Notes under the pieces: model-generated
Seen by the model: only the letters and a program-made list of their open reading frames with translations
Told to the model about the DNA's origin: nothing
Databases searched by the model: none
Origin: a virus
Taxonomy: Duplodnaviria; Caudoviricetes
IMG/VR virus record: IMGVR_UViG_3300037044_000221
Span: 1 to 32,368 of that record
Direction: 5' to 3' (one strand)
Length of the DNA: 32,368 nt
Position numbers and translations under genes: made by a program
Part shown: in pieces, positions 7,892 through 24,835 of the stretch
Numbering within the stretch: position 1 is the stretch's first letter
Layout: each line of letters opens with the position of its first letter

Positions 7892-8164
7892 ATGTTCTAC
7901 GAATTAATGAAGCTTATAGCAGGGATTGTAGTTGTAGTTGCCTTTGGAATTATTTTTTTAATGGTAATTAAAGCCAACTTTAAAAGCGCTTCAACTACGC
8001 TTTACCGCGATGGTTTTATTCTTACCAATCCAACCCGCAATGCCGTTGCATTTGAAAATTCTATCGACGCCAAAAGGTATGTGAACGAATGCTCCCAGGC
8101 GGGAATAAAATGGCGCTGCTACGAAGTGGTTAATGGGCATATAATTGAACGAATATGGACCTAA
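7892..8164 (+). CDS. Hypothetical membrane-anchored protein (start re-called to ATG 7892)
   Basis: ATG 2 nt after the upstream stop, preceded by GGAGG; TM segment LIAGIVVVVAFGIIFLMVI. Confidence 0.65.
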   Translation: MFYELMKLIAGIVVVVAFGIIFLMVIKANFKSASTTLYRDGFILTNPTRNAVAFENSIDAKRYVNECSQAGIKWRCYEVVNGHIIERIWT

Positions 8165-8814
8165 CTACATTTCGACTACCATACCCTCATTGGGAGTTGG
8201 CTAGAGTGGTGAGGGATTATTATCCAAATACATCAACAAACATTATTTGCTATGTAACTGGCTTTAATGTGCAACAGGTTTACAGAATTGCAGCTGCGTT
8301 TAATGTTAAAAAAACGCCAGAATATAAGGCAGAACTATTAAAAGCAGAGGCTTTAAAATTGCAAGAATCGGGTTTGGCGCACAGGTTTAAAAAGGGTCAT
8401 GCGCCATTGAATAAGGGCAAAAAAATGAGTAAAGAGGCTTACGAAAAGGTTAAGCCCACCATGTTTAAACCTGGAAGCATACCGCACAACACCAAGCACG
8501 ATGGCCACATTAGCATTAGGATGGATAAAACGGGCAGAAGCTACTCTCATATTCGTGTTGCTAAAGGAACATACAAGCTGCTTCACAGGGTTATATGGGA
8601 AAGGCACAATGGAGCAATACCCAAAGGATTTATTGTGGCCTTTAAAAATGGTAACACCATGGACTGCACGCTCGAGAACCTAGAGCTAATAAGCCGCCAG
8701 GAAGGAATGTTGCGAAACAGCATGATGAACAAATATCCAGCCGACGTGGTAGAGGTTATAAGGCTTAAGGGAGCGCTAAAGCGAAGAATTAAAAAACTTG
8801 AGGAACGATGGTAG
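8155..8814 (+). CDS. HNH endonuclease-family protein
   Basis: FKKGHAPLNKG and FKPGSIPHN repeats; LLHRVIWERHNGAIPKGFIVAFKNGNTMDCTLENLELISR. Confidence 0.85.
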   Translation: MDLTTFRLPYPHWELARVVRDYYPNTSTNIICYVTGFNVQQVYRIAAAFNVKKTPEYKAELLKAEALKLQESGLAHRFKKGHAPLNKGKKMSKEAYEKVKPTMFKPGSIPHNTKHDGHISIRMDKTGRSYSHIRVAKGTYKLLHRVIWERHNGAIPKGFIVAFKNGNTMDCTLENLELISRQEGMLRNSMMNKYPADVVEVIRLKGALKRRIKKLEERW

Positions 8815-8835: not shown

Positions 8836-9108
8836 ATGGCACGAAATAGCATGGACGATTTACGCAATCACCTTTTTGAAACATTTGAACGCCTAAAGGC
8901 AAACAACGATCCTTCGGCATCGGCCGAGGATAGAATAGACCTACCAACAGCTAAGCAAATATGCGAGGCCAGCGAGGTTATAATTCAATCGGTAAAGGTG
9001 GAGGTCGATTTTCTGCACGTCCTTTCACGTGCAGAGAACCGCGATGCGGTAATTAATGCAGCAAGCAATATGCTGCCAAAGTCACATCAAAAATCAATAG
9101 GACAATGA
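8836..9108 (+). CDS. Small phage protein often found after this HNH type
   Basis: NSMDDLRNHLFETFERL motif. Confidence 0.7.
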   Translation: MARNSMDDLRNHLFETFERLKANNDPSASAEDRIDLPTAKQICEASEVIIQSVKVEVDFLHVLSRAENRDAVINAASNMLPKSHQKSIGQ

Positions 9109-9701
9109 ACAAAACAAAAATCGAATGGGCCGATTATCGGTGGAATCCGGTAGTCGGTTGCAAACACGGGTGCGAATACTGCTACGCAGAGGCAATGAAC
9201 CGGCGTTTTAAATTTATAGCCGATTTTCGTGATCCCCAGTTCTTTTTAAATCGCTTAACCGAGCCCCGCAAGTTTGGTGAACCAGGGCGGGTTTTTGTGG
9301 TCACCATGGGCGATTTGTTTGGATCCTGGGTTCCCGATGTTTGGGTTCACGCTATACTCGAAGTGGTGGAAATGCACCCCGAGCACACCTTTATGTTTTT
9401 AACCAAAAACCCAACCCGCTACTTTAGGTACGATTTTCCTGAGAATACAATGATTGGGCTAACCCTAACCGAACCAAACAGCGCCAAGCTAACCGCATTT
9501 AAAGCCCACTTACACCCACGGAAGTTCTTAAGCCTGGAACCCATTATGGCAACTTTTGAGGGGGTAGACTTTAACGGAATAGAGGAGGTTATTGTTGGTG
9601 CAATGACGGGACCCAAAGCGAAACCACCAAAACCCGAGTGGGTTGAAAGCATTAAGCACCACAATGTGTTTTTGAAGGATAACATTAAAAAGTACTTGTA
9701 A
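9105..9701 (+). CDS. Gp37/Gp68 (DUF5131)-family radical-SAM-like protein
   Basis: TKIEWADYRWNPVVGCKHGCEYCYA, MGDLF, FLTKNP, FLSLEP. Confidence 0.85.
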   Translation: MNKTKIEWADYRWNPVVGCKHGCEYCYAEAMNRRFKFIADFRDPQFFLNRLTEPRKFGEPGRVFVVTMGDLFGSWVPDVWVHAILEVVEMHPEHTFMFLTKNPTRYFRYDFPENTMIGLTLTEPNSAKLTAFKAHLHPRKFLSLEPIMATFEGVDFNGIEEVIVGAMTGPKAKPPKPEWVESIKHHNVFLKDNIKKYL

Positions 9702-11607: not shown

Positions 11608-11976
11608 ATGAACGACACATTAAGAATAGTAGTTAGGGCCTTTTTAATACTGGCAGCATTTTTGGTAATTATTTACTTTATCCTAACAAACATTGGTGAG
11701 CCTAATTTTATTAGCATTTATCCCTATGTTGAAAAATTTGAGTGCGAAAATTCGGGCACTAAAATTTATTATAGAGTAACAAATACTAGCTTGGAGAGGA
11801 TTTCAAGTTTTACCCTTCATGTTATTGTAACCGATAAGTACACGGGTAAAAGCGATTACTACGAGTTAGAAAACAGGGCAGGAATACTAGCCAAAGAAAC
11901 CCTTAGCGACTTTGCAATAGTTGGTCGCTACGATTGTAGCAAAATTAGCATTGAAATGCGCTCCACTCCGTTTTAA
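11608..11976 (+). CDS. Moron: membrane-anchored protein with a beta-rich exported domain
   Basis: N-terminal TM, AT-rich, own TAAATTTG (11584-11591) -7 motif and terminator. Confidence 0.7.
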   Translation: MNDTLRIVVRAFLILAAFLVIIYFILTNIGEPNFISIYPYVEKFECENSGTKIYYRVTNTSLERISSFTLHVIVTDKYTGKSDYYELENRAGILAKETLSDFAIVGRYDCSKISIEMRSTPF

Positions 11977-12550: not shown

Positions 12551-13078
12551 TTAAATTTCAAATATTTTGTCGACTGCCGCAGCCATTGCAGCATCGATTT
12601 TTAAGTTAAGAACTTCACTCTCGCCCATGAACTGGCGCTGTGGAAGGTTCATTTTTCGCTTATGCGCTCTAACTCCATAGCTACCCGTGGCCTGTTTTCT
12701 TTTTCCCGATTTTTGGTACTTCCTTCGCTTATGCGATTTAACGGTTACCGTTTCGCTTACACCGGTGTTGTGCGCTGCTGCGTAGGGTAAATTAGTGCCA
12801 ATTTCGGTAAGCCTCCAGCTTACTAAAAGTTTACGAATGGAGTTGCGCAGGTGCCCACGCTTAACCAGTATTGCGCCGCCTGGTCGACTTCCATTTTTAC
12901 GCCCCGCCCATTTGGTAAGTCCCTTATCGCGCCATCCCTGTCGACGGAAGCTATCCTTAAAAAAGTTGAGCGCAGTTGTTGCCAGAACATCAGGAATTGA
13001 AGCCTTGGCCTCGGTTAGGTTGATAACTATTTTAGAAAAATCGTAATCCCTGCCTTTATATTGAAATGTCCTTGCCAT
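12551..13078 (-). CDS. Virion morphogenesis protein (Mu gpG / Phage_tail_S family)
   Basis: ILVKRGHLRNSI, IGTNLPYAAAHN, LPQRQFMG. Confidence 0.9.
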   Translation of the reverse strand: MARTFQYKGRDYDFSKIVINLTEAKASIPDVLATTALNFFKDSFRRQGWRDKGLTKWAGRKNGSRPGGAILVKRGHLRNSIRKLLVSWRLTEIGTNLPYAAAHNTGVSETVTVKSHKRRKYQKSGKRKQATGSYGVRAHKRKMNLPQRQFMGESEVLNLKIDAAMAAAVDKIFEI

Positions 13079-13082
13079 ACTA

Positions 13083-13113
13083 TTGCTTTTTGTTAAATGT
13101 TGCCATATATTTG
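13083..13113 (+). promoter_or_regulatory. Host-type promoter pointing antisense to the late operon
   Basis: TTG (13083-13085), 20 nt, TATATTTG (13106-13113). Confidence 0.65.
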
Positions 13114-13119
13114 TATTCT

Positions 13120-13183
13120 AATTCCCAGCCTGCGGGTTGGGGTAACCCAAAAGCGGAAGTAACTTCGGTTATTTTCGCTTTTT
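13120..13183 (+). ncRNA. Candidate ~65-nt small RNA convergent with the MuF 3' end
   Basis: Promoter upstream; hairpin CCCAGCC-tgcg-GGTTGGG; 15-bp hairpin with C(UUCG)G loop ending in a U-run; G-U pairs favour the + strand. Confidence 0.65.
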
Positions 13184-14389
13184 AACTTTAATGTCATTTT
13201 TCCTAACAATTACTAACTCCTCTAAATTTTTATTGGCATTAAATTGGCCCTTTGCAAACCTTTCAATGTATGCATCGGTTGCGTTGAATGATGGCTTAAT
13301 AACACAAATACTCGCTTTTTTTGAAGCCTCGGCCACCTTTTTTGCAATATTTCGCTGGCTTGCGCTTTTAAATTCGGCAATTTTACCATTAAGCATCGCT
13401 GTTGGGCACTTACTTGCCTCGCTTTCGGCCCAATTACCATAGTGCGCCAGCCTTGCTGCCTTGTCGTTTTCGTTAATTTTAGGCAAAAGTTTTACTTGTT
13501 TATAGCCACCATTTTTAAGCGCTGCAGCCATTGCCCTATTCTTATCCCTTACGTCAGCACTTTCGCCCTGAACAAGGGCGTGCTCCTCAATGGTTGCCCC
13601 ATTAACCTTTATTGTTCGGTAGGTGTTGGCCGGGGGTAAGTATACCATAGACTTTTTAAGCACTTCTTTAGGCACATCGTTATAGTAGGGGTGATTTTTT
13701 GGAAACATCAGCCCTTGTTTTGCCAGGTTTGTACGGAATAGGCTTGGAACTTCTGGGTAAACAATGGCACCGTCGGGTGTTTCGCGCGAACCACCAGTTT
13801 GTGTTGTGGTGCAACGGCAATTCCATCCGTTTGGTGGGTAGTAGTTGCTCCAAAAGTTATCGTCAATTCGCTTCACGGTGCCATCCAGAGCAGCGTGGCT
13901 ATCCCTTACCAGGCTATCACCAACGGTGCTATAGCGCAGGAACGGCATTGCTTTAGACGTGCGTGTGTAATCGGTCCACTTTGCAGCGTTTAGCGATCCA
14001 CTAATGGCCGTGGAGTACTCGCTTTCAAGCCAATTCTCGTTGAACTGTAAAAAATTCTTTTCAGCAACCTCTCTAAATTCGATGAATGAAAGCAACTCGC
14101 CCGAATCGTTGGTAAGGGCATCGGTTAGCAGGCGCATTTCCTGGTAATTTTTAGCCGCCGAAAATTGGTAAACGTTAGTCTCCAGGCTTGCGAGCATTTC
14201 AAAGTCGGGGCTATCAACACTAAGATCTTTAAAATCGTTTTTAAAGCCCTTTTTAAGCCCTTTTTTCAACTCGGTTGCTGTGGCATCAATTATATCGGGG
14301 TCAATATCCTTTGTGCCACCCGCAGCGTAAACACGCGCAATGAACGAATCCATTAGAGGCGACAGTGTGTGCTTTGCTGCCCCGGCCAA
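13169..14389 (-). CDS. MuF (gp30)-family minor head protein with C-terminal CdiA/PD-(D/E)xK-like toxin extension; probably also expressed as a frameshift fusion to portal
   Basis: LRYSTVGDSLVRDSHAALDG...FWSNYYPPNGWNCRC; C-terminal CPTAMLNGKIAEFKS; weak TTG start with the frame open back to the portal slippery site. Confidence 0.9.
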   Translation of the reverse strand: MAGAAKHTLSPLMDSFIARVYAAGGTKDIDPDIIDATATELKKGLKKGFKNDFKDLSVDSPDFEMLASLETNVYQFSAAKNYQEMRLLTDALTNDSGELLSFIEFREVAEKNFLQFNENWLESEYSTAISGSLNAAKWTDYTRTSKAMPFLRYSTVGDSLVRDSHAALDGTVKRIDDNFWSNYYPPNGWNCRCTTTQTGGSRETPDGAIVYPEVPSLFRTNLAKQGLMFPKNHPYYNDVPKEVLKKSMVYLPPANTYRTIKVNGATIEEHALVQGESADVRDKNRAMAAALKNGGYKQVKLLPKINENDKAARLAHYGNWAESEASKCPTAMLNGKIAEFKSASQRNIAKKVAEASKKASICVIKPSFNATDAYIERFAKGQFNANKNLEELVIVRKNDIKVKKRK

Positions 14390-14459
14390 CTTTACACCGC
14401 CACAGCATTCGCAGGTGGTGTAAGTTTTGGCAATGTTGGCTAACTCAACTTTTTTTTTT
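14385..14459 (-). other. Programmed -1 frameshift signal (A_AAA_AAG plus downstream hairpin) linking portal to MuF
   Basis: GAA AAA AAA AAG TTG AGT TAG; the -1 frame is stop-free into MuF; stem GCCAAC/GTTGGC and TTACACC/GGTGTAA starts 8 nt downstream. Confidence 0.7.
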
Positions 14460-15684
14460 CGGCGCTGAATTGCACCGGTTGCCTCTCCTTTTTGCCAAGG
14501 ATCTTAATGCCATACTTGTCTTCGAAGTACTTGGGGTCTACCTCGTAGTGCTCGAGCAGCATTTTTTCATTAGTTGATTGCTGCTCTGGTGTGTAATCAA
14601 TGGCATAATCCCAGTCGAATATGTCGTTTTCGCCGAATGCAAATCCAAGGTTTCTGAGCTTGGGCAGCAGGTCGTTGTTTATTACGTCCTTCACATTATC
14701 GGCCTGTGCATCAACCACTGCTTGGAACATATTTTCGTGCACTTTGCTTTGGCTAAGGCTCGCCCCGTTATCCATGGTCATTGTAACGGTGAGAATTTCT
14801 TTGGCAATTTCGCTATTTGCACGCTCAATGCGCCTGTCGTAAACATTATATGCATCGCCCCGGCTGCTCTCCTTAATTTCAATTTCGGTGCCCATGGGGA
14901 GCAAAGCATATGCTGCAGTGCCCATATCGGCAAGCATCCTTTCAATGCGGGAGTTGTCGCGGGGGTTGGTGCTACTGGTGCGTCCAATTCGTATGGGCAT
15001 CCCAAACAGCTCTCCAAACTGATCCCAAAAGGCCATCATATTCTTTTTACTTATTGCGTGTGGTGCGAGCTTAAGGAATAAGCCTAACTCCTTTGGACCA
15101 CCAACCTCAAGCACCCAATCGGCAATTTTACCCTCTCGGTAAGGTATGCCAGATTTAAATTCGTCGGATGGATCGCGAAGGATAACCCCAAATTCTGGAC
15201 ACACGTGGTTACGCGGCACTAGCTCAACGCCAGTTAACTTTTTTTTGTTGCCAACTGTAAGCACGTCCCCCAGCTGAATAAGTGAGTGACCCCAATACCT
15301 GGTATCGAGGATGAGCTTAATAATGTCCTTGAACCACTTTGCCTGCAGCAACTCGGTTAACTCGGGCTTATCCTTTTTGGATTTTGCATCCTGTATTCTG
15401 AATGATCGGCCAAGAACTGTATTTTTTATTTGCTCGGTTGCACCTGTAATTTGCCCGTCAATGTCTACGTCAGTATACACGTTGAGCAGTTCGCCTCTCC
15501 TGGGATTTTCCACGTCAATAGCGGTTTGCCAAGCCTGTCGCCACTTTCGAATATCCTTTTGGGTTAGCCTTTGAGTAATTTGAGCAAGCTCAATTACCAT
15601 TTTCTTTTTGTCGCGGTCGGCGAGCTCAACCCCGCTGGAGGAGCTAACCACGTTTATTGCTTTTCCGTGTTGGTCGTATAGCAT
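14440..15684 (-). CDS. Portal protein (Mu gp29 / DUF935)
   Basis: WDQFGELFGMPIRIG, ANSEIAKEILTVTMT, SLSQSKVHE. Confidence 0.9.
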   Translation of the reverse strand: MLYDQHGKAINVVSSSSGVELADRDKKKMVIELAQITQRLTQKDIRKWRQAWQTAIDVENPRRGELLNVYTDVDIDGQITGATEQIKNTVLGRSFRIQDAKSKKDKPELTELLQAKWFKDIIKLILDTRYWGHSLIQLGDVLTVGNKKKLTGVELVPRNHVCPEFGVILRDPSDEFKSGIPYREGKIADWVLEVGGPKELGLFLKLAPHAISKKNMMAFWDQFGELFGMPIRIGRTSSTNPRDNSRIERMLADMGTAAYALLPMGTEIEIKESSRGDAYNVYDRRIERANSEIAKEILTVTMTMDNGASLSQSKVHENMFQAVVDAQADNVKDVINNDLLPKLRNLGFAFGENDIFDWDYAIDYTPEQQSTNEKMLLEHYEVDPKYFEDKYGIKILGKKERQPVQFSAEKKKLS

Positions 15685-18602: not shown

Positions 18603-19550
18603 ATGCCACGGACAGTAACCATTTCAACATCGAAGCTGAATAGCTATGGCTTTAGAATGCTAACCGAGGGTGCCGATTTGAAGCAATTCGAAAAGAATCC
18701 CATTCTTTTATTTATGCACAACCGCCCGTGGCGAGGCACCCAGGATGAAATTCTTGCCCTAGGCAGAGTTGAGAACATTAGAATTGAAAACGATGCCATT
18801 TTAGGCGATTTGGTTTTCGACCAAAACGATCCATTTGCTAAAAAAATTGAGGCCAAATGGGATGCTGGTATTTATAAAATGGTATCGGCTGGTGCTACAC
18901 CCATTGAACTTAGCGACGACCCAAAGCATCTTTTACCTGGACAAACCAGGCGCACGGTTACCAAATGGAAACTCGAGGAGGTGTCGGTGGTTGACATAGC
19001 TGCCAACGACGATGCCATTGCGCTTAAGTCGCCTAAAGGCGATTACATCACACTAAAGGAAGGCGAATGCCCCGATTTTATACCAACAATCACCAATAAA
19101 AATGAGAAAAAAATGGAGAAAATCCTGTTAGCGCTTGGCCTTGGAAAAGATGCAACCGAGGATCAGGCCGTTGCTGCCATTCAGGCGCAACAATCCGAGC
19201 ATCAAACTTTAAAGTTAACCCTAAAGGCTGAAGGCGAAAAAGCCATCACCCTTGCCGTTGATTCGGCCATTCGCGAAAAGCGAATTAAAGAGGAGCAAAA
19301 AACCCACTTCCTTGAGCTTGGCGGCAAGGTTGGTATCGATTTGCTCAGCAAAACTCTTGAGAATATTGAGCCCGCCATTAAGCCTACCGAAATTATTGCT
19401 GGCAAAGGTGGCAAAGCTCCCATTAACCTTTCCGAAAAGAAGTGGGCAGATCTCACCGCTGAAGAGCGTGTTCACCTTCGTAACGAGGATAAGCCAAACT
19501 ACATCAAGCTGTTCAACGCTGAGTATGGCTATGATCCTAAAATGGACTAG
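18603..19550 (+). CDS. Prohead protease with C-terminal scaffold (internal start likely at ATG 19113)
   Basis: NPILLFMH, MVSAG, LEEVSVVDIAAN protease motifs; MEKILLALGLGKDATE scaffold-like half. Confidence 0.85.
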   Translation: MPRTVTISTSKLNSYGFRMLTEGADLKQFEKNPILLFMHNRPWRGTQDEILALGRVENIRIENDAILGDLVFDQNDPFAKKIEAKWDAGIYKMVSAGATPIELSDDPKHLLPGQTRRTVTKWKLEEVSVVDIAANDDAIALKSPKGDYITLKEGECPDFIPTITNKNEKKMEKILLALGLGKDATEDQAVAAIQAQQSEHQTLKLTLKAEGEKAITLAVDSAIREKRIKEEQKTHFLELGGKVGIDLLSKTLENIEPAIKPTEIIAGKGGKAPINLSEKKWADLTAEERVHLRNEDKPNYIKLFNAEYGYDPKMD

Positions 19551-24314: not shown

Positions 24315-24641
24315 ATGTTTAAAAAAATCCCTTACGAACAAAACAATTTAACCGAACTCGCTGCCGAGCAGATTGAGGAGGCAAAGCGCCAGTTTGGCGA
24401 TGTTTACCACATTAAGGTAGACGAAATGCAGTGCTTTATACACAAGCCAACCAGGGCAGTTATCGACCTTGCCATTAGCAGCTCCGCAAAGCGAAGCAGC
24501 ATGTTCGACGAAACCATTTTGCGCAACTGCTGGCTTGCTGGCAACAAGGAGATGGTTGAAGTTGACGACTACTTTTTTGCGGCACGCGGGCAACTCGACG
24601 AGGTGATTAAGTTCAAGACCGCCGAGTTAAAAAAGTTATAG
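24315..24641 (+). CDS. Tail assembly chaperone (gpG analogue)
   Basis: Between tube and tape measure; ends in slippery TTA AAA AAG. Confidence 0.85.
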   Translation: MFKKIPYEQNNLTELAAEQIEEAKRQFGDVYHIKVDEMQCFIHKPTRAVIDLAISSSAKRSSMFDETILRNCWLAGNKEMVEVDDYFFAARGQLDEVIKFKTAELKKL

Positions 24642-24835
24642 CCGATTGGGAGGTTAATGCCGGTACCTCGCAAATTCGGCTAATTAACGCTCAGCTGCGA
24701 TACTACTTTAAGGTAGAGCCGGCAACCCTAACCGATAATGAATGGGCAATGATGTTCCAAGATTTGGTTTGGGTTCGCGATATGGAGAGGAAAAATGGTA
24801 TAGGCGAAAAAATTAAAAAAGCATTTGGGTTGTGA
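24629..24835 (+). CDS. -1 frameshift extension of the tail chaperone (gpGT analogue, ~173 aa total)
   Basis: A_AAA_AAG at 24629-24635; the -1 frame reads VIADWEVNAGTSQIRLINAQLRYYFKVEPATLTDNEW...AFGL*, with TGA overlapping the tape measure GTG. Confidence 0.85.
   Translation, partial: KKVIADWEVNAGTSQIRLINAQLRYYFKVEPATLTDNEWAMMFQDLVWVRDMERKNGIGEKIKKAFGL

Follow-up and report, generated by a model that had tools for sequence, protein, structure and literature searches.

The window analysed here, that is, the whole 32,368-nucleotide stretch of DNA making up IMG/VR record IMGVR_UViG_3300037044_000221, belongs to a Mu-like transposable phage: a transposase, a transposition ATPase, a Mu-type portal, gp36 and an I protease were all found in it, and its terminase, gp36, portal, MuF and neck genes all lie on the minus strand. 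The nearest relatives of the portal reside in Bacteroidales genomes, and the host is hence presumed to belong to the Bacteroidota. The four sequencing runs with contigs covering the window are groundwater metagenomes. An HNH endonuclease gene (8155-8814), a DUF5131 radical-SAM-like gene (9105-9701) and a small membrane-anchored gene (11608-11976) face the late operon. The features discussed below are collected in Table 1.

Table 1. Features of the portal-MuF junction and of associated loci, in window coordinates.
Feature	Position	Strand	Remarks
CdiA-CT-like PD-(D/E)xK nuclease fold	13196..13402	-	PF18451 E 0.003 (below cut-off); model pLDDT 87.6; 4G6V E 1.2e-5
MuF part of predicted fusion, 426 aa	13169..14449	-	PF04233 E 3e-17 at ~14029-13805
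First in-frame ATG (MDSF)	14351..14353	-	poor start context, score -5.4
Linker in the -1 frame, 32 codons, VELANIAKTYTTCECCGG...	14354..14449	-	upstream of first ATG; evolves like coding sequence
Hairpin proposed in the earlier note	14385..14440	-	arms present, stability not above that of shuffles; not supported as stimulator
Portal stop TAG	14440..14442	-	two codons past A10 run
A_AAA_AAG heptamer	14455-14449	-	in phase with portal frame; rival ribosomal site
A10 run (T10 on plus strand)	14450..14459	-	sole homopolymer of at least 9 in the 32-kb window
Mu-type portal gene, 414 aa, C-terminus EKKKLS	15684-14440	-	PF06074 E 1e-70; phrog_113
Mu I-like prohead protease	18603..19550	+	PF10123; phrog_328, phrog_80
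Tail-chaperone site, A6G with strong hairpin	24629..24682	+	z -3.65; 0/200 shuffles as good

The portal gene ends in GAA AAA AAA AAG TTG AGT TAG, and the A_AAA_AAG heptamer that the earlier note had described within a run of ten adenines (A10) at this end is borne out by the sequence. The same holds for the relation between the two genes: the -1 frame, which is open from 14503 to 13169 and carries PF04233, runs into MuF without a stop, giving a predicted portal-MuF fusion of 838 aa, and the third frame meets a stop one codon past the A10 run. The first start-type codon of the MuF frame is indeed a TTG, at 14389, with an in-frame ATG at 14353, and the tail chaperone of this phage does carry, in phase, an A_AAA_AAG of its own (24629-24635). 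The -1 frame of the latter (24629-24835, plus strand) stays open for about 65 codons and ends on the start of the tape-measure gene. The linker of the window differs from that of a relative (L001) at 6, 4 and 15 first, second and third codon positions, respectively, that is, mostly at third positions. The same A10 is present in the relatives L001 and L002, and an A12 is found in L254.

A total of 499 portal loci were gathered, duplicates included, mostly as best hits and with only two of the samplings being even draws; the 30 loci without a MuF hit were left out and the remaining 469 were grouped into 144 clusters at 80% portal identity. MuF lies in an overlapping -1 frame in 123 of these clusters, is fused to the portal in 15 and adopts some other arrangement in six. 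An in-phase slippery heptamer falls within the overlap in 122 of the 123 clusters, the one without it being from an Alteromonadaceae phage in which a stop/start overlap is found; in the background, 6% of 12-codon stretches contain one. Hence, both the conserved slippery site with its -1 frame relation and the natural in-frame fusions that the earlier note had suggested looking for are present among related phages. T_TTT_TTC accounts for 100 clusters and A_AAT_TTT for seven, and T_TTT_TTT, A_AAT_TTT/C, G_GGA_AAG, C_CCT_TTT and A runs are also used. Among the first 72 clusters, T closes the codon preceding Phe-Phe in 68 of 69 cases, versus 19 expected, and TTC is never used for the first Phe (0/69, against 10/20 in the background), a codon bias implying that the constraint acts on nucleotides. 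Of the 115 non-A sites, 104 have a stem of at least 5 bp placed 5-8 nt downstream, the controls giving 17 and 22, and the stem arms of relatives swap GCCCC for GGGGC. Substitutions in the -1 frame ahead of the ATG again fall mostly on third codon positions (90/60/196 by position, in 20 pairs), and the slip site is also found in the cultured phages p00, fF4 and Peternella_1. Judging from these sequence comparisons, recoding of some kind between portal and MuF is very probable, and its standing as a real new case of phage recoding appears well supported.

The six clusters with other arrangements are heterogeneous. Three of them (L010, L071 and L196) retain the site, with a break close by, and in L459 an inserted gene separates the portal from MuF; by eye, this gene resembles a small endonuclease, and no slip site was seen in this locus. 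Two Flavobacterium phages, lotta8-2 (L249) and FPSV-S27 (L250), present a separate MuF gene with its own ATG, so that fusion cannot be obligatory. The portal C-terminus of these two phages has a 'LY...C.H'-like ending similar to the -1 linker found in other phages, as would be expected if a fusion had re-split further down.

The 15 fused genes comprise five with exactly A10, five with T_TTT_TTC/T and a stem and two with A_AAT_TTT and a stem, and the slip site is thus retained in 12 of them, including that of P. gingivalis phage007a. In each of these the -1 frame meets a stop within 0-24 codons, and slipping would here yield the portal alone, that is, with reversed polarity. A clear slip site is absent from L432. 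In the T7 variants L233 and L258, which may be errors, the -1 product is read without a slip. The in-frame fusion of L257, which has an A10, reads EKKKVEL, the very peptide that the phage studied here would make by slipping. Among longer homologs, 30 out of 31 carry both portal and MuF domains; in these 31, which are known only as proteins, the junction window contains KKK in 18 cases, FF in nine (both in two) and neither in six, with KKK appearing in 0, 0 and 2 instances in three control windows. Fused and split labels are scattered over a quick tree, which calls for at least four changes in the case of A-type fusions and for three in that of T-type fusions, and which does not give the order of events. 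An AlphaFold model of a natural portal-MuF fusion (pLDDT 55) was too poor for use.

The homopolymeric nature of the site and the existence of fused homologs might suggest an assembly error, with the true sequence being A11 and both genes a single fused one, and a comparison of A10 with A11 had been put forward in the earlier note. On the contigs of the four runs, this comparison gives A10 and no indel: three runs bridge the site gap-free, although two of these are possibly the source of the record, and the contig pieces of the fourth end near the A10 site. Moreover, the frame relation is identical in L001, L002 and L254, and KKKL plus one residue constitutes the portal terminus in ten distinct 90% clusters, leaving an assembly error effectively refuted. 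Long homopolymers mutate often, and phase variation at the DNA level, with A10 and A11 genomes side by side and the fusion confined to phages that carry A11, would be in keeping with this and with the two T7 variants in which the -1 product is already in frame. Nevertheless, A10 is found in both fused and split A-run genes, the frame difference residing outside the run, and the contigs of the four runs hold no indel, even if rare variants stay hidden in contigs; such variation is therefore quite unlikely. Hardly more probable is that MuF constitutes a separate gene, started at the ATG of MDSF (14353) or at the TTG (14389), to which the A run would be incidental. The Met of MDSF is kept in all eight close relatives, and separate MuF genes occur in L249, L250 and L253, both in line with such a start. 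On a start-context matrix for which 39 annotated starts average +2.8 and 71 internal ATGs -3.9, the MDSF ATG scores -5.4, like an internal ATG, and its counterparts in relatives score -8.2 to -9.5. An ATG is absent before the MuF core in 25 of 122 clusters and from the first 20 codons in 102, and the argument against a separate start is completed by the 32 upstream codons, which evolve as coding sequence, and by the near-universal retention of the heptamer (122/123). Independent initiation of MuF, which the earlier note had named as the outcome that would speak against a frameshift, hence finds no good start codon at this locus.

As to how the frame is changed, the earlier note had invoked a classic -1 signal of the dnaX/IS3 type, stimulated by a hairpin starting 8 nt past the heptamer. 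The in-phase heptamer and the open, conserved -1 frame devoid of a start of its own agree with this proposal, and complementary arms do exist, but the stem 5-9 nt downstream does not hold up. No significant hairpin emerged at this site when folding was compared with shuffles (z of -1.0, -1.1 and -0.2, and +1.15 in a separate run), the lowest-energy fold starts some 17-18 nt past the heptamer instead of 8, and a stem at the right place is seen at none of 11 A-run sites, versus 104 of the 115 others. An upstream Shine-Dalgarno-like stimulator is a further component of such signals, and Bacteroidota make little use of SD pairing. The proposed arms were also considered as covariation, and were not counted because the pairing registers differ among the window, L001 and L002. 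A search of Rfam over 12900-14700 returned nothing real, its single hit having an E value of 0.74.

The A runs, on the other hand, stand out from their background. Runs of A9-A11 appear in 12 of the 144 linkers, compared with two A9 and no A10 in 299 kb of the same genes, and no background KKK tripeptide (0/40) reaches A9. The runs of relatives span A9 to A12 in varying codon phase; a G follows the run in 11 of the 12 A-run linkers, and this trailing G has been lost in L251 and L254 (A12). At all 11 A-run sites, a stop ends each of the two unused frames within some 12 codons. In particular, the third frame closes at a median of 4 codons in A-run sites versus 11 in U-type sites (p 2e-4), a difference for which a gene-matched control gives p 0.0006 by sum and a borderline 0.054 by median, and which comes from A-run lineages that are few and, in the quick tree, partly related. 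Transcriptional slippage is described as efficient at 9 A/T, and the dnaX gene of Thermus as having near stops in both other frames, in the portions available of PMC5009743 and PMC1088944. The rarity of A9-A11, the missing stem and the early closure of both unused frames point to RNA-polymerase slippage, a side option of the earlier note that accounts for the present site better than the classic dnaX/IS3 signal does. On this evidence, we assign a probability of roughly one half to RNA polymerase adding an A being the main route at the A10 of this phage.

The main competitor is a ribosomal fusion, produced either by a stem-less -1 tandem slip of two Lys-tRNAs at A_AAA_AAG or by sliding on the Lys run, with the mRNA staying A10, and we regard it as a serious possibility, if a less favoured one. 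A_AAA_AAG is the most shift-prone heptamer of E. coli, an in-phase AAG closes the run in seven of the 11 A-run lineages, and ribosomes sliding along A runs would leave a similar picture. The presence of non-homopolymeric heptamers in the family (A_AAT_TTT, G_GGA_AAG and C_CCT_TTT) further implies that the family default is ribosomal, and the nearest relative in the tree (L007) one of the 12 with an A run, presents tandem candidate sites, an A9 and a T_TTT_TTC with a stem, either of which would lead into MuF. This ribosomal reading has to contend, however, with the absence of a stimulatory stem, which extends to all 11 A-run lineages other than L007, and with a run that is kept far longer than the six A's required, in a phase that varies and with the G dispensed with in two lineages. 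The early closure of the third frame is likewise at odds with it, and the chaperone site of the same genome makes do with A6G, in the company of a hairpin. A separate tRNA-Lys(CUU), which weakens AAG shifting according to the sections available of PMC5009743, was detected in two of five Bacteroidales genomes searched, with a pattern that missed some tRNA genes. Both routes may contribute, and polymerase and ribosome would give rise to an identical junction peptide.

The C-terminal domain of MuF had been labelled a toxin, and its predicted CdiA-CT-like fold is congruent with that label. A Thr (13400-13402), however, occupies the position at which 11 of 12 aligned proteins have Asp, this phage being the only one to differ. 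The PD-(D/E)xK motif suggests that the conserved Asp is catalytic, and the domain may be inactive in this phage; the substitution renders the term toxin doubtful here. No immunity gene was found after MuF, which is followed by a 90-bp gap to the neck gene, and similar short gaps are present in L001 and L002. Within this gap, past the MuF stop, TATATTTG (13106-13113, plus strand), which we take to be a match to the Bacteroidota -7 promoter element, points back to the 3' end of MuF across small hairpins. Of 119 clusters, 79 have the motif in antisense orientation no more than 150 nt from the MuF stop, typically at 50-80 nt, compared with seven in sense orientation and seven inside MuF. It possibly reflects an antisense RNA that takes the place of an absent immunity gene, or else a location for accessory genes. 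Metal binding by the CECC linker, as proposed in the earlier note, is possible, but CxxC is present in only 23 of 122 linkers and cannot be a general feature.

The closest parallel among known systems is dnaX, for which we rely on the parts available of PMC5009743 and PMC1088944. As predicted for the portal-MuF junction, a long and a short product are there obtained from one gene, by transcriptional slippage at A9 in Thermus thermophilus and by a -1 frameshift at A_AAA_AAG in E. coli; homologs use polymerase or ribosome, near stops lie in both other frames and reversed polarity has been suggested for some. The present case differs in that it concerns a phage head protein, in that the long product takes in the next gene of the operon, and in that mechanism and polarity would vary within one phage family. 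The -1 frameshift of the tail chaperones gpG/gpGT of lambda and of their SPP1 counterpart (17.5, at UUUUUUC) uses the same heptamers to set a ratio of short to extended form in assembly, as far as the accessible portions of PMC5009743 and PMC6316719 describe it, but those are non-structural chaperones, whereas portal subunits are predicted here, at a site without a stem. In MuF polymorphic toxins and in SPP1 gp7, as presented in the available parts of PMC5576092, PMC11699363 and PMC6316719, MuF also follows the portal directly, bears a variable C-terminal effector and is found in few copies per head, as proposed here. Those proteins, on the other hand, are described as being made separately, as binding the portal non-covalently and as coming with immunity genes, whereas in this phage no immunity gene follows and a Thr replaces the conserved Asp.

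Hard-fused portal-MuF proteins are known from Microbacterium phage clusters EA3/5/8 and EB (PMC7302621) and, as PBECR-MuF-portal, from PMC5512222, and they indicate that the covalent form is viable; no recoding is proposed in the portions seen of either source, and the fused Bacteroidota genes reported here mostly keep a slip site. The word frameshift is absent from the main texts of PMC5576092 and PMC11699363, in the parts available, as are portal and MuF from the first two-thirds of a 2016 recoding review (PMC5009743). Recoding of portal-MuF was not found in the openly accessible literature searched, and neither a recoded portal protein nor productive polymerase slippage in a virion gene of a tailed phage was found in it. 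With hard fusions already known, the new parts are the hairpin-free A10 variant and the reversals of polarity.

Reading expression from sequence, conservation and controls, polymerase slippage in this phage would lead from A10 messages to the 414-aa portal, from A11 messages to read-through into MuF (EKKK-VELANIAK) and the 838-aa fusion, and from A9 messages, which meet a stop one codon later, to a near-normal portal. In most relatives, a predicted ribosomal -1 shift at T_TTT_TTC or A_AAT_TTT with a hairpin would give the same two products, in some of them with reversed polarity. By comparison with Mu-type portal structures, MuF would then sit on some of the 12 subunits of the portal ring, inside the head, and the prohead protease may, as in Mu, release it from the portal. 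By analogy, it is likely that the slip doses MuF onto part of the ring: the portal of the Mu-type phage JBD30 has its crown inside the head (PMC11445458, as far as available), the last 124 residues of the Mu portal are absent from the virion structure, which its authors ascribe to protease I (PMC11915804), and SPP1 gp7 is carried into the head in low copy number through its binding to the portal (PMC6316719, in part). Beyond that one passage of PMC11915804, a literature search on Mu gpH cleavage returned nothing relevant. The reported cleavage of the Mu portal by protease I, and the presence of such a protease in this phage, make a permanent tethering of MuF to the portal uncertain. Mass spectrometry of hankyphage particles detected MuF with three peptides (9% coverage) and the portal with 20 (48%) (PMC12135933, S6); the corresponding gel fractions are uninformative, since even small proteins, Gam among them, turn up at 85-250 kDa.

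We suggest, tentatively, that the Mu-like phages of Bacteroidota may use a single recoded locus to assemble a portal ring of mixed composition, in which only some subunits bear the MuF effector. The machine (ribosome with a hairpin, or RNA polymerase on A10) and the polarity (slipping to fuse, or slipping to truncate) would have been repeatedly swapped and the two products kept; either polarity would lead to such a ring. The group is widespread, encompassing hankyphage p00, Winogradskyella phage Peternella_1, Flavobacterium phage fF4 and Porphyromonas phage007a. If the proposal is true, the MuF starts of these phages are mis-annotated, or their 'portal' conceals a hidden short form. The family would provide a natural series, with cultured members, in which ribosomal and transcriptional recoding can be compared at homologous positions, and a dosed tail on the portal would offer an answer to how few copies of MuF and of its effectors come to be present in each head.
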